Shown in pieces: positions 9,390 through 21,492 of a stretch of 26,854 bases of DNA. The notes beneath the pieces were generated by a model. It was not told the origin of the DNA and did no database searches. It worked only from the letters and a program-made list of their open reading frames with translations. Position numbers and translations under genes: made by a program. Origin of the DNA: a virus (lineage: Duplodnaviria; Heunggongvirae; Uroviricota; Caudoviricetes); the IMG/VR virus record IMGVR_UViG_2737471839_000017, positions 1 to 26,854 of that record; one strand, 5' to 3'. Positions within the stretch are counted from its first letter, which is position 1; the number at the start of each line of letters is the position of its first letter.

Positions 9390-9686
9390 TCACTCCTGTT
9401 CACTGGCCTCTTTGGCCATCTTCAAATACTGTTCAGGGCAATGCGCCATAACGCGCTGAAACAGTTCCAGCGCCAGATTGCGTTGCCCCTCATTAAATGC
9501 CATTGCCATAGCGTCCATCGGTGAGATAGCGGAAAACACCCGGCCTTTCTCCAGCACAGACCAGACAACGCGACGCCCCTGTTCACTGCTCATGACAAAG
9601 CGAATGTCATCAATTTCACGCTGTGCCATGTCACGTTGCTTACGGGCGTTTTCTTCTTTCAGTTGATCATCTTCGTAATCTGTCAT
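9390..9686 (-). CDS. Hypothetical protein (98 aa) between portal and scaffold
   Basis: ATGA coupling to the portal stop; charged helical sequence. Confidence 0.45.
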   Translation of the reverse strand: MTDYEDDQLKEENARKQRDMAQREIDDIRFVMSSEQGRRVVWSVLEKGRVFSAISPMDAMAMAFNEGQRNLALELFQRVMAHCPEQYLKMAKEASEQE

Positions 9687-11362
9687 TGTGATTGCCCACC
9701 CTGACCACTAACTGCATTCGCCATAGCTGACAAAACACTCGGATCCGAAGTTTTAGCTTCGCTTAGCGTCTTGGCACCCTGTGCCGCCGCCATCCCCATC
9801 GCCATCATTTGTTGCTGCTGTTGTTGCTGTGCCCGTTGCTGGCGAGCCTGCTCAACCTGTTCCTGCGGAACAATGACGGTTGGAGACACTCCGGACATAT
9901 CAGCGAATGCATCGATCGCCTGATCAACGTTGAGTTTGTCGAGAGCTTCTGGTTTCGCTTGCGCAAGTTGACCAATGAAGTTAACCGTGGACGCCAGACT
10001 GGACAGGCCGATAGACTTCTGCGCCTGAGCCATGACAGAAATGTATTCGACCTTCAGGGGCATACCTTCCATCGCGTCAGGCGGTGGCGGCAGCATGTTT
10101 TTACGCACCATCATCGAGAAAGCGCGGTCAATGAGAGGATTAAGACATTCGTCGTTCAGACGCTCCAGAACCGGCCCCAACATCAGAAGTTTTTCTTCTT
10201 TCATTTCGATCACTGCTTCAACAGGCATCGAGCGGGTATTGATGTTCTGCAACATCATGAACAGATCGACAAAGTAGGCGCTGTTAATGATTTGGCGAGT
10301 GTCCTGAATGTCTGCTACCAGATCTGCTGTACTGGGGTTAACCAGATAAGCAGGCCTGAAACCATCCTGACCAGTAATCTGATCGATATACGTGATGTCG
10401 CCAGGAAGAAGGGATGCGCGCTGATTCTTGAGGGAAGTCGGAGCAACCATCGGCGGATTGGTGGCTTTATCAATCAACTGTGACTTACGCTTCTGGAGAA
10501 GCTGCAATGCCTTAACAGGTCCAAGCGCCAGCATACCCGGGCATGATGATCCATAAACATCTTCGCCGTTAACTTCCCAGCGCGGAGCCATAATTGGAAA
10601 CTCATCGAATCCGGACTCACGCAACAACTTGTCGTTATCGCCGCCAACCTCGTAATAAACCGATTTGAATGGCTTGTTCTTGCTATCCAACTTCGATGTA
10701 TCGCGGTCAATGTTCGGGTAAACCGAATGCATCACTTCAATCCACTTCTCGTAGGTGCCTCTTTCCCACATGCTTTTTACGGATTCGCTGACGTTATTTA
10801 GCCCGAACTCCTGAACAAGCTGACGAACAGTCATAGAGAACTTGCGAAAACAGGTGTCAACACTGCCACGAGGTGAGTTAGCCAGGTAGTAACTGCCTAT
10901 CGGGAATGGCATTGTGCGAATGATGTCCTCATCATCCTCTAGTACCGCCATTGCACCGGTGCTGTATGTGCCGAGGCTTCCGTATAACTGCGGCAGCGAC
11001 TGATAGAGATTCGACTTATTGAACATATCGTTCATGCGGTTCTGCACCGCCTCAAGCCACAACTTAACAGGGCCATAATCCATCATTTCAGGATCTGGCG
11101 TAGCCAGGCGAAACCACGGACGGGCGGGGCTTGTGATGCCAGACATCATGCCGCTGGCGAGAGTGCGCGCCGCCATAGTCCCGGTCGAATCAATAATGCG
11201 TGTATTGCGTCGATCGTTACGGTTGACCTCAGAAGTCAGAAAGCGGGAACCACGCGGGTTGATGTAATCACTCAACTCGCGCCAGTGCGGTTCGAACGAC
11301 TGACGCTCGCTTTCAAGTTGTGCGAACTGTTTGTTCAATCGCTCTTTAGTTGTTTCCGCCAT
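9683..11362 (-). CDS. Portal / head-to-tail connector protein (559 aa)
   Basis: Size; C-terminal Gln/Ala/Met-rich tail (QQQQQQQMMAMGMAAAQGA) resembling the T7 gp8 C-terminus from memory; RBS GGAG; sits between terminase and scaffold. Confidence 0.75.
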   Translation of the reverse strand: MAETTKERLNKQFAQLESERQSFEPHWRELSDYINPRGSRFLTSEVNRNDRRNTRIIDSTGTMAARTLASGMMSGITSPARPWFRLATPDPEMMDYGPVKLWLEAVQNRMNDMFNKSNLYQSLPQLYGSLGTYSTGAMAVLEDDEDIIRTMPFPIGSYYLANSPRGSVDTCFRKFSMTVRQLVQEFGLNNVSESVKSMWERGTYEKWIEVMHSVYPNIDRDTSKLDSKNKPFKSVYYEVGGDNDKLLRESGFDEFPIMAPRWEVNGEDVYGSSCPGMLALGPVKALQLLQKRKSQLIDKATNPPMVAPTSLKNQRASLLPGDITYIDQITGQDGFRPAYLVNPSTADLVADIQDTRQIINSAYFVDLFMMLQNINTRSMPVEAVIEMKEEKLLMLGPVLERLNDECLNPLIDRAFSMMVRKNMLPPPPDAMEGMPLKVEYISVMAQAQKSIGLSSLASTVNFIGQLAQAKPEALDKLNVDQAIDAFADMSGVSPTVIVPQEQVEQARQQRAQQQQQQQMMAMGMAAAQGAKTLSEAKTSDPSVLSAMANAVSGQGGQSQ

Positions 11363-11376
11363 TTCAATGACTCCGG

Positions 11377-11583
11377 TTACTGACCAAGCAGCGTTTTACC
11401 GCTGGTATTAGCGGTTGATGTGTCGCCCTGAGAACCGGTAAGCAGCGTAGAACTACGACCAGCAGCAGCGCGACGGCGACGTGTTTCTTCGTCGCGGGCA
11501 TCAACAACGGCGGCATCCTGCTCCTGTGGTGCTGCCTGAACTTCTGGTGTTGCAGGCACTGATGGTGAGCTACCCATGCACAT
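11377..11583 (-). CDS. Small acidic Ala-rich protein (68 aa), first gene of the head operon
   Basis: ORF with GGAG RBS; the overlapping 11364-11603 frame is judged less likely. Confidence 0.3.
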   Translation of the reverse strand: MCMGSSPSVPATPEVQAAPQEQDAAVVDARDEETRRRRAAAGRSSTLLTGSQGDTSTANTSGKTLLGQ

Positions 11584-11651
11584 ATCAATGACTCCGTACG
11601 CAATTAAATTATTACCAATTTAACCACATATGATTTATTTATCGTAGATAG

Positions 11652-11688
11652 TTGACATTTAACGCACGAATTATTACCTTTCAGGTAA
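11652..11688 (+). promoter_or_regulatory. Candidate promoter (TTGACA at 11652-11657) with overlapping operator palindrome TTACCTTTCAGGTAA (11674-11688)
   Basis: Perfect -35 hexamer; weak -10 (TACCTT); operator-family site lies over the -10/+1 region. Confidence 0.3.
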
Positions 11689-12010
11689 CTAAAGAGTTCA
11701 TTCCGGTTACTAACCTGACTGGCTTGTCGTTAAATTGAACAGGTGGAGTGAGCTTTTATTTTGAGCAGTACGGCGTATGGCACATGCGCCGATAGCGGTC
11801 TGGATACGTTTAAGGGGCACCCTCCCTTGCTCGGGCAAACGAACCAGGTAGCCGGAATGTGCAAGTCGAGCGGTTTTATTCCGCGCACGGGGATTCACCA
11901 TCCCGGCGATTCGGTGTGACGCCTCGGAAGAGACGAGGGTGCAACGATGAGAGCATTTATGGAGCCGCGACAAAGTGTGGCGCCTTAACAGGCTAAGTGC
12001 TCTCAGCGTT

Positions 12011-12087
12011 GTGGCATTAGCTCAGTTGGACAGAGCAACCGCCTTCTAAGCGGTTGGTCGCAGGTTCGAATCCTGCATGCCACGCCA
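12011..12087 (+). tRNA. tRNA-Arg (anticodon UCU), 77 nt including CCA
   Basis: Hand-folded cloverleaf: acceptor GTGGCAT/ATGCCAC, D stem GCTC/GAGC, anticodon stem ACCGC/GCGGT with loop CTTCTAA, T stem GCAGG/CCTGC with TTCGAAT loop, CCA end. Confidence 0.85.
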
Positions 12088-12130
12088 GAATCACGCCTAA
12101 GGACCGTGATGCCAGAAGTTCCAGGGGCTT

Positions 12131-12173
12131 GGCGGTGATGGTTTCCCTTGAAGGACTATCACCGCCCTTTTTA
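12131..12173 (+). terminator. Intrinsic terminator downstream of the tRNA
   Basis: 9-bp stem GGCGGTGAT / ATCACCGCC with an 18-nt loop, followed by CTTTTT. Confidence 0.55.
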
Positions 12174-12250
12174 CAGCAGGACGCCATTGCGATGGCTTCA
12201 TGCTGTAAACCAGTACAGCCACGGAAGGCATAACTCATTGCTTCCAGTTC

Positions 12251-12274
12251 GCCCGGTTCGCCGGGCATTTTTTT
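12251..12274 (+). terminator. Second intrinsic terminator/attenuator immediately upstream of the 12286 ORF
   Basis: GCCCGG-ttcg-CCGGGC hairpin followed by ATTTTTTT; the T-run abuts the RBS AAGGTGAG. Confidence 0.5.
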
Positions 12275-12285
12275 AAGGTGAGATT

Positions 12286-12657
12286 ATGAACGACAAGCAA
12301 ATCGAAAAAGAAATCGTTGAGAAAGGCAAAACGGCACCGCGCGTTACGCCAGACCATATCGAAGGCATTATTGCTCAGGAGGCATATTTCACAGCAGAAG
12401 ATGGTGCCTTTGGCAAAGCCATAAAAGCGAAACATACTGGCGGAGAGGTAAACTACCAGCCGCACGAATCACTTTCTCTGCTGACGTTCTGCGTCCTGGT
12501 GCTGCGCAACGGCTTCACCGTCACCGGAGAGAGCGCCTGTGCAAGCCCGGAAAACTTTGATGCAGAAATTGGTCGGAAGATTGCCCGGCAGAATGCTGTA
12601 AACAAAATCTGGATGCTCGAAGGTTACTTGCTGAAGCAGAAGCTAAGCGAGCAATAA
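12286..12657 (+). CDS. Hypothetical moron protein (123 aa)
   Basis: Strong RBS AAGGTGAG 4 nt before the ATG; followed by a terminator; opposite strand to the flanking late genes. Confidence 0.6.
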   Translation: MNDKQIEKEIVEKGKTAPRVTPDHIEGIIAQEAYFTAEDGAFGKAIKAKHTGGEVNYQPHESLSLLTFCVLVLRNGFTVTGESACASPENFDAEIGRKIARQNAVNKIWMLEGYLLKQKLSEQ

Positions 12658-12677: not shown

Positions 12678-12704
12678 AGCCAGCCGATGAGCTGGCTTTG
12701 TTTT
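12678..12704. terminator. Bidirectional intrinsic terminator between the moron ORF and the terminase large subunit
   Basis: 7-bp stem AGCCAGC / GCTGGCT flanked by AAACAAA on one side and TTTGTTTT on the other. Confidence 0.5.
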
Positions 12705-12747: not shown

Positions 12748-14223
12748 TTAAGCATAGGGATCGTAATCTGTAATGGCCTTGCCTTGCTGGTTCTGCTGCC
12801 CAGGAATTCGCAGACGCTTCGACACAGGGAAAGCAAACGTCAGCAGTAGCGCATCGCCTTTACCCGGCGAACGCCCAAGACGCTCTTTGATATCTTCCTT
12901 CGGTTCGATAACGATTTTACCGTCCACACGAACTTTGTACTCTGCCGCCGACAGGTCGTCTGCAGTTTCCTGGTCATCCAGCATGCCGCCCAGCCTCAGC
13001 CATGTCTTACATGAGTTGAACATCTCCCCACGCTTGTTAAGCATCTGCGGGTCAGTGGACGCACCGCCGAACGGAACAAGTTGCCATGTACGTCCCCAGC
13101 CATCACCGATTGACTTCAGCCCGGTTCCGTAACCGAAGTCGATGAATACTGCGTCAGCCTGGTACTGGTCTTCAAAGTCAGCGATACGCTTCGCCATAAT
13201 CAGATCGTCGGTGGTCTTGTTACCAGTCCACAGCACCTTACTGTGCAGCCCCTGCCGCAGGTATATCACCGCGTCATCAACGCCTGAATATGCCGGGTCA
13301 ACACCGATTATCACCGGAGCATGCGCCACCTGCGCAGCGGTCACCACCCGTTTCATTGCCTCATCAGTAAGACCGGTAGGGATAAACTGCAATTCAGATG
13401 CATCAGGGAATATGCCGCGCACACGGATTTTAACGAAGTCGCTGTCTTCCCCGTAGTCATCAACCCATTTCTGCAACTGCTGTTTGTTAGTGCCTTCCAC
13501 CGTCCGGCTGTCAATCTGCGCAGTTTTCCAGCGGTGTTTATATTTGCGGAAACATTCGCGAAAACGCCCGGTGTTACGTGTAGGGTTTCCGAACGCCACC
13601 CAGATAATCTCAGTGTCTTCGTCCGTAAGCGCACCCTCAGCAACTTCCCACACCAGATCCGCAATGTTCGACGCTTCATCGAATACCACGATGATGCGTT
13701 TGCGCTCGTTGTGTAGTCCGGCGAATGCCTCAGTGTTGTGCTCAGACCAGGGTATTGCGTCAGCCCGCCACCGCTTGTCGTGCCCAGGGTCATTGCTGTA
13801 CATCGCGGTAGCGGTACAGGTAAACCAGTCTTTCGTGATAGCAAGGTTCGACCACTTGATAATTTCCGGCCAGGTCTTCGTTCGTAGCTGGTTGTCGGTG
13901 TTGGCGGTCACCACGACCTTACAATCCTCGCAAGTGGACATGCCCCAGTTGATCAGCATTGAGATGAATGCGGATTTACCAATACCGTGACCAGAAGCGC
14001 GTGCCAGCATAAGCGGCTGATAGCGCGTCTCTGGATTCTGCAGGTGATCACGTATCTCTCGGAACGCATCAGCCTGCCACTGACGTGGACCGGTGGCATG
14101 TGCCAGTTCAGTCCCCTCTTCCCCCCACGGGAACGCATAGAGGGCATAGCCAAGCGGATCGTGAGTGAACCCTGCAATATCCTCGATCAACTGCTCTTCA
14201 GGAGATAACGCTGTATCTGTCAC
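12748..14223 (-). CDS. Terminase large subunit (491 aa)
   Basis: Walker A-like ARASGHGIGKS; C-terminal nuclease-type acidic motifs (VIIGVDPAYSG, FIDFGYG); GTG start overlapping the small-subunit stop (GTGA). Confidence 0.85.
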   Translation of the reverse strand: MTDTALSPEEQLIEDIAGFTHDPLGYALYAFPWGEEGTELAHATGPRQWQADAFREIRDHLQNPETRYQPLMLARASGHGIGKSAFISMLINWGMSTCEDCKVVVTANTDNQLRTKTWPEIIKWSNLAITKDWFTCTATAMYSNDPGHDKRWRADAIPWSEHNTEAFAGLHNERKRIIVVFDEASNIADLVWEVAEGALTDEDTEIIWVAFGNPTRNTGRFRECFRKYKHRWKTAQIDSRTVEGTNKQQLQKWVDDYGEDSDFVKIRVRGIFPDASELQFIPTGLTDEAMKRVVTAAQVAHAPVIIGVDPAYSGVDDAVIYLRQGLHSKVLWTGNKTTDDLIMAKRIADFEDQYQADAVFIDFGYGTGLKSIGDGWGRTWQLVPFGGASTDPQMLNKRGEMFNSCKTWLRLGGMLDDQETADDLSAAEYKVRVDGKIVIEPKEDIKERLGRSPGKGDALLLTFAFPVSKRLRIPGQQNQQGKAITDYDPYA

Positions 14224-18012: not shown

Positions 18013-18357
18013 TCAGAACTCTTCGATGTTCCAGCCACCACCTGCTTTCTTTGGTTTAACCGTTACCCCGATGATTCGGAACGGATACTGATCTGCGGCG
18101 ACTTTGGTTTTCACCCTGGCGTCGTCGGTCCAGAAACCTTTCACTTCGTGCAGTTCCATCTCTCCGGTGGCGAGCATCACAGCGAAATCTGGCGTATAGA
18201 ACGTGTTGTCAGCTAACCGCAGCTTGATACCCTCGAATCGATACCAGGCGATTTCCCCTGCACGTTTACGCAGCTCAAGGTGCTGGCAATACGCAGATTC
18301 TGTTTTGTTCATCTGGCCTGTTTTGAGTCGACCAAGAGCCTGTATCTGTTTTCTCAT
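18013..18357 (-). CDS. DUF1064-like phage protein (114 aa)
   Basis: First gene after a promoter/operator region; family recalled, not searched. Confidence 0.5.
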   Translation of the reverse strand: MRKQIQALGRLKTGQMNKTESAYCQHLELRKRAGEIAWYRFEGIKLRLADNTFYTPDFAVMLATGEMELHEVKGFWTDDARVKTKVAADQYPFRIIGVTVKPKKAGGGWNIEEF

Positions 18358-18374
18358 GATTTACCCTTGAGGTA

Positions 18375-18403: not shown

Positions 18404-18474
18404 TAGAGTTTAGAATGTTTTGTTACCCAACAGGTAACTATCGAGGCGTAAAAAAATGCGCTATCGCGCTGGTA

Positions 18475-19275
18475 TTACTTGATAAATCCTGCCGCCTTTC
18501 CTCGCCTGTATTCCTCCATCAGCCACTGCGCCGGTGTTATTCCCCCAAGGGTGGCGGCGTTAGGCATGCACCCGAAACTTCGCCCTGGTGGATGGTAAAC
18601 GTCTCTCCCTGTGTCCGGAGGTGTACTCATGGGTTCTGGCTTTGCCTGTATGCTGATCACCGGATCGGGTATCTGCTGCCCGGAATCCACCTTTTTCGCC
18701 CAATCATCGAGCAGCCTGCGTGCGTGTTTCTCAACCTCAATCTCGCTAAGCTGGCGCTGATACATTGCACGGCGGGTATCACATACGACCCAGTACATAA
18801 CCGGATGTCGCCACGGGAATCTTTCGGGACCACCAGGATATAAACTTTTTTCCTTGCTGTACCGGTGAAACTCCGCCATCACATCGTCAATGGTGACGCC
18901 AAGAACCATCTTGCTGTCTTTGCACCACTTGATAAATTGCCCTGGAGACGGCCAGAACGGAGATTCACTGGCGCGGGCGTGGCGCATACCAGCAGAAACC
19001 TGTTCACGGGTTCGGATCCCCCCTTCGGCAAACGCAGCAATCCACTGCTGTTTTGCAGCAACTTCCTGCTCTGGCGTCTTCAGGTTGGTTACCACTGCCG
19101 CCGGAAACAGTTGTTTCAGCTGTTTAAAAAGGGCATCAACAAGCCTCTCTGCTGACATGTTCACCACATTGTCATTGTTGACGTACTGATGCTCATAACC
19201 TGACATGCGAGAAAGGGCTTCTCCGTCACGGTTTTGTATCGCGGTAAAAACGTTGTTCACAAGAAATCCTCCCAT
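18475..19275 (-). CDS. Replication protein P-like (helicase loader), 266 aa
   Basis: Segment '...FPAAVVTNLKTPEQEVAAKQQWIAAFAEGGIRTREQVSAGMRHARASESPFWPSPGQFIKWC' parallels lambda P '...FPASLANRDQNEVNEIRRQWVLAFRENGITTMEQVNAGMRVARRQNRPFLPSPGQFVAWC' from memory. Confidence 0.75.
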   Translation of the reverse strand: MGGFLVNNVFTAIQNRDGEALSRMSGYEHQYVNNDNVVNMSAERLVDALFKQLKQLFPAAVVTNLKTPEQEVAAKQQWIAAFAEGGIRTREQVSAGMRHARASESPFWPSPGQFIKWCKDSKMVLGVTIDDVMAEFHRYSKEKSLYPGGPERFPWRHPVMYWVVCDTRRAMYQRQLSEIEVEKHARRLLDDWAKKVDSGQQIPDPVISIQAKPEPMSTPPDTGRDVYHPPGRSFGCMPNAATLGGITPAQWLMEEYRRGKAAGFIK

Positions 19276-20156
19276 GCTTCAGGGCTGTTCCAGTGCGGAA
19301 CGTTGTTATCAGGTAATGTTGATTGCTTCTGTCTGCTAATCTGCAGCCGCCTTGCCAGCTTCTGCTCCCACTGTGCCTGATGGTATGCCTTACCCTCAGC
19401 CATCCAGTAAATTCTGAACTCTGCAAGTTCCTGTGCCGTTGGCAGACTGTCCAGGTAGATCCCCTGCAATGAGCTTTTCCGAAGAAAGTCATCTGATGGC
19501 TGCCATTGTTCATGCATGACAAATTTGCCTAATTGCCCTGGCCCACCTGGAGGAACAAAGTTATTCATCACGGCGTTGTTTGCGCCGGGGTCATGGGGCA
19601 CGGAATCCCCGATTTTTGTCCTGCTCTCCCTCTCTTGGTTAAATGACTGGTTATATGACTGGTTCTGGATCCCGTTTTTGGGATCATTCAACATCCCGTT
19701 TTTGGGATCATTCAATATCCCGTTTTTGGGATCATTCAATATCCCGTTTTTGGGATCATTCAATATCCCGTTTTTGGGTATATTCCCGTTTTCGGGAACA
19801 TTACCGTTTTCGGGAACATTACCGTTTTCGGGTTCATTACCGTTTTCGGGTTCATTACCCCCTTCCCGTTTGCCTTTAATGTTCCCTTTTTTGGTTATAT
19901 TAAGAGAGAAAACCCGTACTCTTTTCGTCGCCCCCTTTCTCTCTCCGGTATCTGAAATAAGCCCCATTTTCATGAGCGATATAAGCCCGGCCTGCACGGT
20001 TTTTTTATTCAGGCAAGTGTCTTTAACGAGGCGTTCTATGCTGGGGTAGCAGAGGTTATATTCATCGGCTCTGTCAGCCATCGAGAGCAGTATGAGCTTT
20101 AATGATGAGCTACCTGGATCTGTCTCCCAGGCCCAATCTGTTGCATGTCTGCTCAT
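19257..20156 (-). CDS. Replication initiator O-like protein (299 aa) carrying the iteron-encoded peptide repeats
   Basis: Directly upstream of and overlapping the P-like gene; internal DNA iterons; RBS GGAG 9 nt upstream. Confidence 0.7.
   Translation of the reverse strand: MSRHATDWAWETDPGSSSLKLILLSMADRADEYNLCYPSIERLVKDTCLNKKTVQAGLISLMKMGLISDTGERKGATKRVRVFSLNITKKGNIKGKREGGNEPENGNEPENGNVPENGNVPENGNIPKNGILNDPKNGILNDPKNGILNDPKNGMLNDPKNGIQNQSYNQSFNQERESRTKIGDSVPHDPGANNAVMNNFVPPGGPGQLGKFVMHEQWQPSDDFLRKSSLQGIYLDSLPTAQELAEFRIYWMAEGKAYHQAQWEQKLARRLQISRQKQSTLPDNNVPHWNSPEAWEDFL
19670..19910. repeat. Origin of replication candidate: about 4.5 copies of a 24-bp iteron (ATCCCGTTTTTGGGATCATTCAAY), 4 copies of an 18-bp iteron (CCGTTTTCGGGWWCATTA), then an AT-rich stretch
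   Basis: Tandem direct repeats read in sequence; each unit contains a short inverted repeat (ATCCC/GGGAT or CCCG/CGGG); located inside the O-like gene as in lambda ori. Confidence 0.65.
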
Positions 20157-20522: not shown

Positions 20523-20753
20523 TCATGAGTAGAAGAAGTATGCCAGTTCTGCTTTTGAGCGCAGCCATTGTCTTGTTTTACAGGCTTTAAAAAGCCCATC
20601 CATCAATACCTTACCTGGCATTTTGCGCTTACCTGTTAAGTGAGTCTGGATATAGTGACTCGTCGTTCCGGCTTCCTGTGCGAAGGCTTCACGCTCATCC
20701 GGAGTAAGTGCAAGCCAGTGCTTTTTGAAATCGAAATGTCCGTTATCGCTCAT
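20523..20753 (-). CDS. Cro/CII-like small HTH regulator (76 aa)
   Basis: Divergent from the repressor candidate across an operator-rich intergenic region; HTH-like segment 'FAQEAGTTSHYIQTHLTGKR'. Confidence 0.5.
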   Translation of the reverse strand: MSDNGHFDFKKHWLALTPDEREAFAQEAGTTSHYIQTHLTGKRKMPGKVLMDGLFKACKTRQWLRSKAELAYFFYS

Positions 20754-20907: not shown

Positions 20908-21492
20908 ATGAAAAGTATCCAGGACGTCCGCAGGCAAAATCTCAACGACTTGATCGACCGTGAATTCAATGGTGTTCAGACGCGGATGGCAGAAAAACTT
21001 GGAACTCAGGCAAATCTGGTAAACCGCTGGGCTCTTGGCAAGAAGGTTATCGGCGACCAGGTTGCGCGAAAAATTGAAGCTGTCGCCAATAAACCACGTA
21101 ACTGGCTTGATATCGATCGCTCGCTTTCTCAGGAGGGTTTTCAGCCTGTCGGACCAAGCGACATTGGTCAGCTGGCGGCTCACAACCTGGAACGCTGGAT
21201 GAGCGAAAGCCGCGACCTTTCAACACAGGGAAAACTTCACCGCGCATCCGGCGTCGCCCAGGTGACAATCAGCCGCCTGTTAAACAATGAGGTCAGCGTT
21301 TCCATTTCCACCCTGGAGAATGTTGCATCTGCATTCGGGCGTCACGGATATGAACTACTGATTCACCCGCACGACCCTGCAACTATCAACTATGACCGCT
21401 CGCGCTACGCATTGTTACCTGAAACCGAGAAAGCAAAGATCGAAAGTTACATTGAATTTGTCATCAACCAGAACGAAAAAAACAAACAATAA
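20908..21492 (+). CDS. Tandem-HTH (XRE-type) DNA-binding protein, maintenance-repressor candidate (194 aa)
   Basis: Two HTH-like segments ('QTRMAEKLGTQANLVNRW' and 'LHRASGVAQVTISRLLN'); no Shine-Dalgarno before the ATG; followed by a terminator; cI-equivalent position. Confidence 0.55.
   Translation: MKSIQDVRRQNLNDLIDREFNGVQTRMAEKLGTQANLVNRWALGKKVIGDQVARKIEAVANKPRNWLDIDRSLSQEGFQPVGPSDIGQLAAHNLERWMSESRDLSTQGKLHRASGVAQVTISRLLNNEVSVSISTLENVASAFGRHGYELLIHPHDPATINYDRSRYALLPETEKAKIESYIEFVINQNEKNKQ

Follow-up and report, generated by a model that had tools for sequence, protein, structure and literature searches.

Several stable RNAs come from the spacers of tRNA and rRNA precursors, among them 3'ETS-leuZ of Escherichia coli and 'species 1 and 2' from the tRNA cluster of phage T4. 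The T4 species 1 and 2 are stable RNAs, the function of which is still unknown. A structured phage RNA of another kind is put of phage HK022, which acts in cis on RNA polymerase (at the beta' zinc-binding domain) and prevents termination without protein factors. A put-like mechanism was proposed by Casjens, Smith and colleagues for LLS, a phage without N (PMC12315714), and the mEp phages were isolated as a Nus-dependent collection (PMC11893012). Here we describe an RNA domain, which we call module A, found upstream of a tRNA gene in the virus record IMGVR_UViG_2737471839_000017 of IMG/VR; the whole sequence analysed, 26,854 nucleotides (nt) long, is referred to as the window. BLAST identities of 98-99% to phiV10, TL-2011b and O157 typing phages 9 and 10 mark the window as a phiV10/epsilon15-like prophage, that is, as an epsilon15-like temperate podophage. 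We class module A as a new RNA family within the structured phage leader and stable RNAs. Below, we describe its fold, its distribution and the leader in which it is embedded, and then weigh what it might do.

Fold and conservation of module A

Copies of module A are about 150-180 nt long, with seven helices, a pseudoknot between a loop and a strand, and junction strands that are invariant over long stretches. The parts in the window, all on the plus strand, are as follows.

11769-11941, plus: module A, the conserved RNA domain that contains the pseudoknot and is central to this work (covariance model, covariation, no Rfam match)
11771-79/11783-91 (11771-11791), plus: helix P1, a hairpin with loop GCA; the lower stem covaries
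11796-99/11851-54, plus: P2a, invariant, with U.G in 63/63 sequences
11800-03/11844-47, plus: P2b, from the covariation analysis
11807-11/11837-41, plus: P3, separately supported; pair 40-85 is GC in 32 sequences and AU in 19
11812-11836, plus: lineage-specific insert, enclosed by P2a, P2b and P3
11847-11865, plus: near-invariant 19-mer GGUAGCCGGAAUGUGCAAG (3' strand of P2, junction J2/5 and start of P5), exact in >120 IMG/VR loci
11865-68/11904-07 (11865-11907), plus: P5, enclosing P5a and P6
11870-86, plus: variable hairpin P5a, inside P5
11891-93/11901-03, plus: P6, a covarying stem with the 7-nt loop UUCACCA (11894-11900)
11896-11916, plus: pseudoknot of CACC in the P6 loop (11896-99) with GGUG (11913-16), from covariation
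11922-26/11934-38 (11922-11938), plus: P7, the covarying hairpin CCUCG-GAAGAGA-CGAGG, 3' boundary of module A

It should be noted that hairpin density alone is weak evidence, because the single-sequence fold only modestly beats its shuffles (z = -2.35 on the plus strand and -2.64 on the minus strand). The comparative evidence is drawn from 63 non-redundant homologues, aligned with MAFFT without structure fitting (alignment A1). On this alignment, 95.0% of the cells in the model's pairs are paired, against 87.3% for shuffles and 29-42% for controls in which the partner was slid; both sides change in 13 pairs (148 cells), and the covariation score is 0.237, compared with 0.03-0.06 for the slid controls. 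An unbiased scan by mutual information with average product correction ranks the pairs of the model at the top, the pseudoknot pair included. The strand of the RNA is fixed as plus, because strand-informative G.U pairs are frequent (U.G in 63/63 and 60/63 sequences) and would read A.C on the other strand. A covariance model, R1, gives the window 141 bits (E = 3e-44) and all other lineages 122-165 bits. As judged by these comparisons, the stretch upstream of the tRNA is a genuine, strongly conserved folded RNA on the plus strand, and its covariation support is stronger than that for many Rfam families.

Individual helices differ in how they vary. In P1, pair 7-19 is GC in 34 sequences and AU in 27, and covariation is confined to the lower stem, the upper part (UAUGGCACAUG) being invariant. 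RNAalifold offers an alternative for the top of P1, in which the invariant GCACAU (11780-85) pairs with an equally invariant AUGUGC (11857-62); because only the lower stem covaries, this pairing might be a second pseudoknot or a conformational switch. Within the P2/P3 region (11796-11854), pair 33-91 is CG in 43 sequences and UA in 20. In the P5/P6 region, pair 139-151 (CG in 51, GC in 10) and pair 141-149 (AU in 39, UG in 13, CG in 10) are paired in all cells, and the pseudoknot pair 144-164 is C-G in 48 sequences and A-U in nine, with zero mismatches. Both sides change in four of the five pairs of P7, and in other phages foreign inserts and opposite-strand genes begin right after this hairpin. 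Kissing of the P3 loop with J2/5 or with the P7 loop was considered and rejected, as the strand order of J2/5 is wrong and neither pairing covaries.

The 19-mer that spans the J2/5 junction is the least variable part. Among loci recovered through a different motif, the P1 hairpin, only five deviate from it, by one base each, and three of these deviations convert a U.G pair to U-A. Its invariance is not an artefact of retrieval, because loci found through P1 nearly all keep it. Frozen junction sequences are typical of RNAs that dock on a conserved macromolecule and, with the junction nucleotides of module A almost frozen, they point to a conserved host partner.

A first-pass annotation, made from the sequence alone, had drawn attention to 11740-12000 as a hairpin-dense non-coding stretch. 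The inverted repeats that it quoted are all present (TTGC/GCAA at 11827-30/11835-38, GGGGAT..ATCCC at 11889-11904 and CCTCG-gaagaga-CGAGG at 11922-11938). The second and third correspond to the covarying helices P6 and P7; TTGC/GCAA is ambiguous and competes with the better-supported P3/P3a. The long-range pairing that it thought possible, of GCACCCTC (11817-24) with GAGGGTGC (11935-42), does not survive comparison: it pairs in 53.6% of cells, no better than shuffles or slides, and shows no covariation, and its 5' segment, which lies in the lineage-specific insert, is absent from 47-60 of the 63 sequences. The element is also wider than was proposed, the leader extending from about 11690 to 12010 around the conserved core at 11769-11941. 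Of the suggested identities (structured leader, small RNA or processing substrate), what is seen is a structured plus-strand RNA between a promoter and the tRNA, with a hairpin that ends at tRNA nucleotide 1, so that the suggestion was right in outline; transcription and processing are predicted from that arrangement. Two of the checks that had been named, Rfam and covariation in relatives, both went in favour of a new structured element. The tRNA is the sole match to Rfam 15 at the gathering threshold, so that 11740-12000 has none, nothing credible falls within 11740-12000 when 11500-12350 is searched with E up to 10, and none of 17 homologous leader arrays has a match over module A or the adjacent hairpin, module B; the relatives gave the 95% pairing and the 13 pairs with changes on both sides.

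Distribution and mobility

Positions 11770-12017 of the window, a segment that ends where the tRNA begins, are 82-84% identical to a segment of the lambdoid phages mEp460, cdtI, 2H10 and Ayreon, the Stx2c phages and Stx2a_WGPS2 (BLAST). Phages P1, P7, D6, SJ46 and RCS47 match over about 160 nt at 77-81%, and similarity over a core of about 100 nt extends to Enterobacter phage Tyrion, Klebsiella phage SopranoGao, mEp390 and "Stenotrophomonas" phage BUCT708. About one third of complete E. coli genomes (1840 of 5426) carry module A, as do 591 plasmid records, mostly phage P1-like. As DNA, the 19-mer (GGTAGCCGGAATGTGCAAG) retrieves >120 IMG/VR loci and 24 species-representative genomes; apart from two metagenome bins, the latter belong to Enterobacterales, and nearly all to Enterobacteriaceae. 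Module A and the leader of BUCT708 (L005 in our set of loci; OM816834, vB_SmeS_BUCT708) are near-identical to those of IMG/VR loci L094, L096, L117, L039 and L053. The stated Stenotrophomonas host of this phage deserves checking, because the species-representative genomes in which the element occurs are otherwise those of Enterobacterales.

The module is always on the transcribed strand and occurs in three settings. In lambdoid phages that lack N it lies in the pL leader, directly 3' of the CI repressor gene; at least six heteroimmune lambdoid types carry it right after CI. SopranoGao also has the module. In phages P1 and P7 it lies 3' of tRNA-Ile and upstream of ban. The third setting is that of the epsilon15-like phages, to which the window belongs. 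A same-strand tRNA adjoins module A in 43 of 128 loci, either a tRNA-Arg downstream or, in phage P1-like elements, tRNA-Ile(CAU) 14 nt upstream; in 85 of the 128 there is none. The first-pass annotation had not seen that the element can do without the tRNA; lambdoid pL leaders and the ban operon of P1 carry the module too. By its distribution, module A is a mobile module with sharp edges, independent of the tRNA.

Each phage has one copy. A second, putR-like copy in the rightward operon was sought and given up, none being found in 100 loci, and the sole extra copy, in L024, is degenerate and lies beyond a moron. Opposite-strand morons with their own terminators are inserted in L024 (3997-4154 and 4260-4790, minus strand), L086, L119, L043 and L030, either directly after P7 or in the apical part of hairpin B, and the module edges behave as mosaic recombination joints. 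In L005 (2226-2440 and 2800-2910), L094, L074 and L006 (2783-2803), short hairpins of the form UGAC-N-CCGG-GAAAGA-CCGG, some of them near-tandem, occur before and after module A; their loops are boxB-like or contain GGA, they are related to P7, and they could be protein-binding sites.

Two phages are informative because they do without the module. In epsilon15 most of it has gone, from the P3 loop through the loop of the first terminator, T1 (L003, 2530-2600, compared with L041 and L105), with the second terminator, T2, and the following open reading frame (ORF) retained. In close relatives of epsilon15 the P3 and T1 loops share GUUCCCUUGAUGCU; the loss looks like recombination between repeats, because both loops carry this sequence. 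In many lineages a UYCCUUG motif recurs in both of these loops. In phage LLS (L166, 31730-32359, minus strand), a leader of 630 nt consists of a B-type hairpin, a tRNA-like element, T1 and a further B-type hairpin, without module A; a strong terminator-like hairpin (CUGGCUG...CAGCCAG followed by U5) stands in the slot of module A. Module A is dispensable, because LLS and epsilon15 are viable without it, LLS growing in the laboratory.

The leader and its processing signals

In the window, module A is housed by an intergenic island of 700 nt on the plus strand, between two genes that are both transcribed in the opposite direction. The untranslated leader of the tRNA-Arg(UCU) transcription unit takes up about 11690-12010; the island also holds the tRNA, two intrinsic terminators (12131-74 and 12251-74) and an ORF of the Phage_gp49_66 family.

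9683-11362, opposite to the island: portal gene, with a 68-amino acid (aa) ORF on the same side
11692-11756, plus: B0, a long hairpin with a conserved internal GUCGUUAAAU motif and an RNase III-type stem (-22.9 kcal/mol, z = -2.39)
11942-12011, plus: module B, a long hairpin with basal stem CAAC-GAU-GAGAGCA / UGCUCUC-AGC-GUUG (-33.9 kcal/mol, z = -6.2)
12011-12087, plus: tRNA-Arg(UCU), CCA encoded (ARAGORN; 73.3 bits with the Rfam tRNA model, match 12011-12084)
12131-12174, plus: intrinsic terminator T1, a 14-bp stem and CUUUUU, kept in most leader arrays
12251-12274, plus: intrinsic terminator T2, a GC-rich stem and U7, directly 5' of the ribosome-binding site of the next ORF
12286-12657, plus: sole protein gene of the unit, Phage_gp49_66 family, function unknown (Pfam PF13876, E = 9e-35)
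12678-12697: terminator T3, 3' of the 12286-12657 gene (terminator scan)
12748-14223, opposite to the island: large terminase gene, on the other flank

The hairpins on either side of module A resemble processing sites. In the GenBank record of epsilon15 the homologue of B0 is labelled 'RNaseIII, mRNA processing', and B0-related hairpins recur in other leader arrays. The basal stem of module B covaries, with the variants CAAC-AGGU-AAGAGCA / UGCUCUU-UCC-GUUG and ..AGAGCGCA / UGCGCUC.., whereas its apical inserts range from 30 to about 280 nt and can accommodate even an opposite-strand gene. Module B shares its last G with the tRNA, of which it is nucleotide 1, and the RNase P site would fall between 12010 and 12011. 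Because hairpin B ends at that G, cleavage by RNase P would give the upstream RNA a 3' end at the base of a stable hairpin. The whole has the layout of a tRNA-precursor leader: a promoter at 11652-80, a same-strand tRNA at 12011-87 and no terminator-like site from 11769 to the tRNA, the terminator scan upstream of module A giving only a weak hairpin (11703-11722) inside B0.

Elsewhere, the slot of the tRNA is filled by tRNA-like elements, as seen in an Rfam scan of the 17 homologous leader arrays. The element of L095 (1077-1203, minus strand) scores 43.9 bits with the Rfam tRNA model and has intact acceptor, D and T arms, a 64-nt insert standing for the anticodon arm. More are found in L001 (4240-4375), L004, L007, L013 and L082, with inserts of 60-110 nt in place of the anticodon arm and commonly a CCA-like tail; they resemble natural 'tRNA scaffold' chimeras. 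Compared across arrays, module A is optional cargo of a conserved leader that appears to be of a processing type, in a position interchangeable with tRNAs and tRNA-like chimeras.

Other features of the island and its surroundings can be mentioned briefly. The loop of T1 has a motif, UUCCCUUG, that is similar to the loop of P3 in module A. Two more conserved hairpins, ACAGCAGGACGCC..GCUGU and GGAAGGCAUAACUCAUUGCUUCC, lie between T1 and T2 (12176-12250) and are common to epsilon15 and many other leaders. Further away, at 19257-20156 on the minus strand, is a gene for a DnaT/HTH_36 replication protein with about 10 tandem copies of a peptide repeat, (N)GNxPENG / PKNGILND.

Promoter and operator context

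Two features lie immediately upstream of the leader.

11652-11680, plus: sigma-70-type promoter, with -35 TTGACA (11652-57), a 17-nt spacer and -10 TACCTT (11675-80), from the sequence
11673-11689, no strand assigned: operator palindrome ATTACCTTTCAGGTAAC over the -10 hexamer, the presumed site of the prophage repressor, from motif recurrence

Transcription would start near 11687-11689. The TTGACA-17-TACCTT promoter is found 13-115 nt 5' of module A in many epsilon15-like loci and, more generally, 80 of 123 unique contexts have a promoter-like site no more than 150 nt upstream, compared with 22 of 100 control windows; some of these sites are just 7-14 nt from P1. The palindrome, as ATTACCTnnnAGGTAAT, has six copies in the window (at 11673, 18360, 20452, 20837, 21549 and 21611) against 0.03 expected. 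The last four flank a helix-turn-helix (HTH), repressor-like gene (20908-21492), and the equivalent site in the GenBank record of epsilon15 is labelled as a repressor binding site. The same four palindromes bracket, with the HTH gene, a divergent cro-like ORF (20523-20753, minus strand), thereby defining the immunity region and its operators; the copy at 18360 lies between the divergent ORFs 18013-18357 (minus) and 18415-18843 (plus).

A comparable context is seen in the other lineages. In lambdoid phages, module A is on the same strand as the CI gene and just 3' of it, after operator- and promoter-like sequences; the upstream ORFs are CI-type repressors in all eight diverse loci considered, of at least six sequence types. 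In phage P1 the module is within the C1-controlled ban operon. In every lineage, then, the RNA would be part of a repressor-controlled immediate-early transcript.

Possible functions of module A

We lean, tentatively and with rather less than even confidence, towards the view that module A is an accessory stable RNA, cut from an immediate-early precursor by RNase III and RNase P and acting in trans on a conserved host factor. A repressor-controlled early promoter would drive a precursor containing B0, module A, hairpin B, tRNA-Arg(UCU), the terminators and the gp49-like ORF. Host RNase P would cut this precursor at 12010/12011 and RNase III-type cleavage would take place in the long B0 and B stems. 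Early in lytic growth, within its first minutes, module A would thus be set free as a separate and stable RNA. The freed RNA would then bind a conserved enterobacterial factor in trans, in a host-takeover or counter-defence role, and would not act through base-pairing to mRNA. Excision is supported by the arrangement in phage P1, in which the tRNA ends 14 nt upstream of module A. The term accessory is used because module A is dispensable, which is expected of cargo rather than of core regulatory machinery. It is possible, though doubtful, that module A represents a new class of phage host-takeover RNA, shared by P1-like, lambdoid and epsilon15-like phages, that binds, reprograms or inhibits a core enterobacterial machine or a defence protein without any phage protein. 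The candidates would be RNA polymerase or the Nus factors, RNase E or RNase P, or a tRNA-targeting defence nuclease, and the tRNA/RNase III scaffold would deliver the RNA and carry tRNAs or chimeras as interchangeable cargo.

Several points weigh against excision and action in trans. The discrete stable RNA species is itself deduced from sequence. No terminator belongs to module A itself, and every copy is embedded in a longer leader, 5' of same-strand genes, a position equally expected of a cis-acting element. In phage P1 there is no obvious 3' processing signal after the module, and no candidate host partner has been identified. Moreover, although no description of the RNA was found in 7.7 million PMC papers or in bioRxiv by sequence string or by topic, subscription papers and motifs known only from catalogues may escape both such a search and one of Rfam. 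The Pas small RNAs (bioRxiv 2026.05.13.724894) belong to the late region and are unrelated to module A, and the motif may be one of the roughly 10,000 viral candidate RNAs catalogued in PMC10690425, where it is not discussed. Some more specific ideas were also dropped. A sponge for CsrA was set aside, the GGA motifs counted by eye being about as frequent as by chance, and with it a role for the anti-Shine-Dalgarno-like UCCUU loops; likenesses to signal recognition particle RNA, 5S rRNA, RNase P RNA and tmRNA were short and unconvincing.

Two alternatives would have module A act in cis. It is unlikely, in our view, that nascent module A modifies RNA polymerase, alone or with Nus factors, for read-through of T1 and T2, as an analogue of HK022 put or of nutL. 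What suggests such an antiterminator is the nutL/putL-like position, with a promoter-like site 7-120 nt away and directly 3' of CI-like repressor genes in eight of eight diverse loci, in lambdoid carriers that have no N gene, together with the strong intrinsic terminators (12131-74, 12251-74) ahead of the first ORF and a P7 loop, GAAGAGA, that resembles the boxB loop. The independent suggestion of a put-like mechanism for the relative LLS (PMC12315714) and the Nus dependence by which the mEp collection was isolated (PMC11893012) fit as well. However, LLS itself keeps a terminator-containing leader without module A and grows normally, and epsilon15 has lost the module and retained T2 and the ORF; there is a single copy per phage and none in the rightward operon, and the phage P1 copy is mid-operon with no terminator downstream. 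The test for enrichment of terminators after the module was weak (87/115 contexts on the same strand, against 67/115 on the opposite strand). A nut-like boxA after module A is striking in L086 and L043, but canonical boxA occurs downstream in just 2/115 contexts, unenriched over controls, and boxA-like words are not enriched either. Homology to HK022 put was likewise rejected, R1 giving no match in HK022 at E <= 10 (L128, L129) and putL and putR being dissimilar by eye. No N-like protein was found beside the element among four candidate ORFs examined with Pfam and PHROGs or among the first downstream ORFs read in seven further lambdoid loci, an eighth such locus having no ORF of >=60 aa to inspect. 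We regard as distinctly unlikely the other possibility in cis, that a compact 5' structure shields the transcript from RNase E or helps an adjacent tRNA or tRNA-like element to mature. P1 does begin about 10 nt or less from the presumed transcription start in several phages, tRNA 3' processing in phage P1 would leave a monophosphate 5' end just upstream, and many loci have a tRNA or tRNA-like neighbour; yet a simple 5' hairpin would suffice for such a purpose, so that a pseudoknotted fold of 160 nt with its 19-mer is excess constraint, and 85 of 128 copies have no adjoining tRNA, while the tRNAs of related leaders mature without module A.

That the conserved entity is not an RNA at all, being instead a small protein (from the minus-strand ORF 11710-11973, compare mEp460_037, mEp390_036 and Tyrion gp54, or from the plus strand) or a site in DNA (a recombination linker or protein-binding site), seems to us scarcely credible; some of the probability we assign to none of these readings. 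Hypothetical coding sequences are annotated over module A in some GenBank records, stop-free frames span it in many homologues, and the edges of modules A and B match mosaic junctions and moron insertion points. On the other side, the compensatory changes and strand-specific G.U pairs show selection on an RNA fold. The lengths of the homologues are spread evenly over the mod-3 classes (26/20/17), and variability by codon position is 0.20/0.24/0.22, without 3-base periodicity in either candidate ORF frame; the first-pass annotation was thus right to see no plausible gene here, 11710-11973 (minus) being the only long ORF over the element. The annotated ORFs of mEp460, mEp390 and Tyrion contain both the start and the end of the homology, which they overrun, and E. 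coli genomes have no PGAP annotation there. The comparison supports a non-coding module A, and several of the 'hypothetical protein' annotations over the region, those of mEp460, mEp390 and Tyrion among them, are probably spurious.

Phage P1, the Stx-converting phages and the O157 typing phages have been heavily studied, yet this RNA has gone without annotation, although about one third of complete E. coli genomes carry it. In several temperate lineages that are unrelated to each other, it would stand at the very beginning of immediate-early transcription. A new RNA-only device for host takeover or antitermination is a real possibility, if far from a probable one. An antiterminator would explain how the leftward operon is expressed in lambdoid phages without N, a point raised in 2025 for LLS; a trans-acting decoy would extend the means of phage takeover or counter-defence by one that uses RNA alone. 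The leader, with its RNase III stems, tRNA-like ends and exchangeable cargo, looks like a natural scaffold that is relevant to RNA expression technology.

Comparison with known RNA systems

In this window, module A has the position that defines a tRNA-precursor leader, and it does not belong with put, nut, C4 or any Rfam family. HK022 put is similar in being a structured RNA just 3' of the early leftward promoter of a lambdoid phage without N, upstream of terminators, and in having conserved unpaired nucleotides that suggest docking on a host machine. It is, however, only about 70 nt long with two stems, compared with about 160 nt and a pseudoknot; put is present in both the leftward and the rightward operon, whereas module A has no rightward copy, is single-copy and dispensable, and is also found in phage P1 and in podophages outside any pL context. 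The boxA-boxB elements of lambda nut and of rrn leaders are likewise promoter-proximal, the P7 loop GAAGAGA recalls boxB, and the 3' strand of module B, UGCUCUY, resembles boxA. In contrast to nut, the phages here lack N, and the boxA-like words are base-paired, covarying and not enriched. A lambda-type nut site would unite boxA (CGCUCUUA / UGCUCUUUAACA), boxB and N; boxA is confined to the 2/115 contexts already mentioned, and no N-like ORF or PHROG accompanies it.

The C4 RNAs of P1 and P7 and the CI RNA of P4 are small phage RNAs matured by host RNase P from a longer early or immunity transcript, much as is proposed here. They are antisense RNAs of about 77-80 nt with known target sites; for module A no target pairing is evident apart from the internal 6-nt complement. 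The Rfam C4 model (RF01695) has no match in the window, which places module A outside that family, and phage P1 carries both C4 and module A. In mEp460 the C4 match is elsewhere: at 1706-1894 of L001 (minus strand), matches to Rfam C4 (83.6 bits) and isrK (67 bits) lie inside a coding sequence called 'regulatory protein Rha', suggesting a module of the phage P1 immI type (c4-icd-ant) with a mis-annotated or fused ORF.

The RNase III stems of rRNA operons and of T7 early mRNAs are presumably the analogues of hairpins B0 and B, which have 17-20 bp with internal loops, a conserved lower end and hypervariable apical inserts, like stems that excise a cargo. This likeness concerns the flanking hairpins and not module A, and cleavage is predicted. 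There remain the spacer-derived RNAs 3'ETS-leuZ and T4 species 1 and 2, which are non-tRNA RNAs co-transcribed with tRNA and freed by the tRNA-processing machinery, as is proposed for module A. They are unrelated to it in sequence, and module A is far more conserved, more widely spread and mostly not beside a tRNA; 3'ETS-leuZ, moreover, is a sponge that works by base-pairing, whereas module A has the look of a compact tertiary fold.

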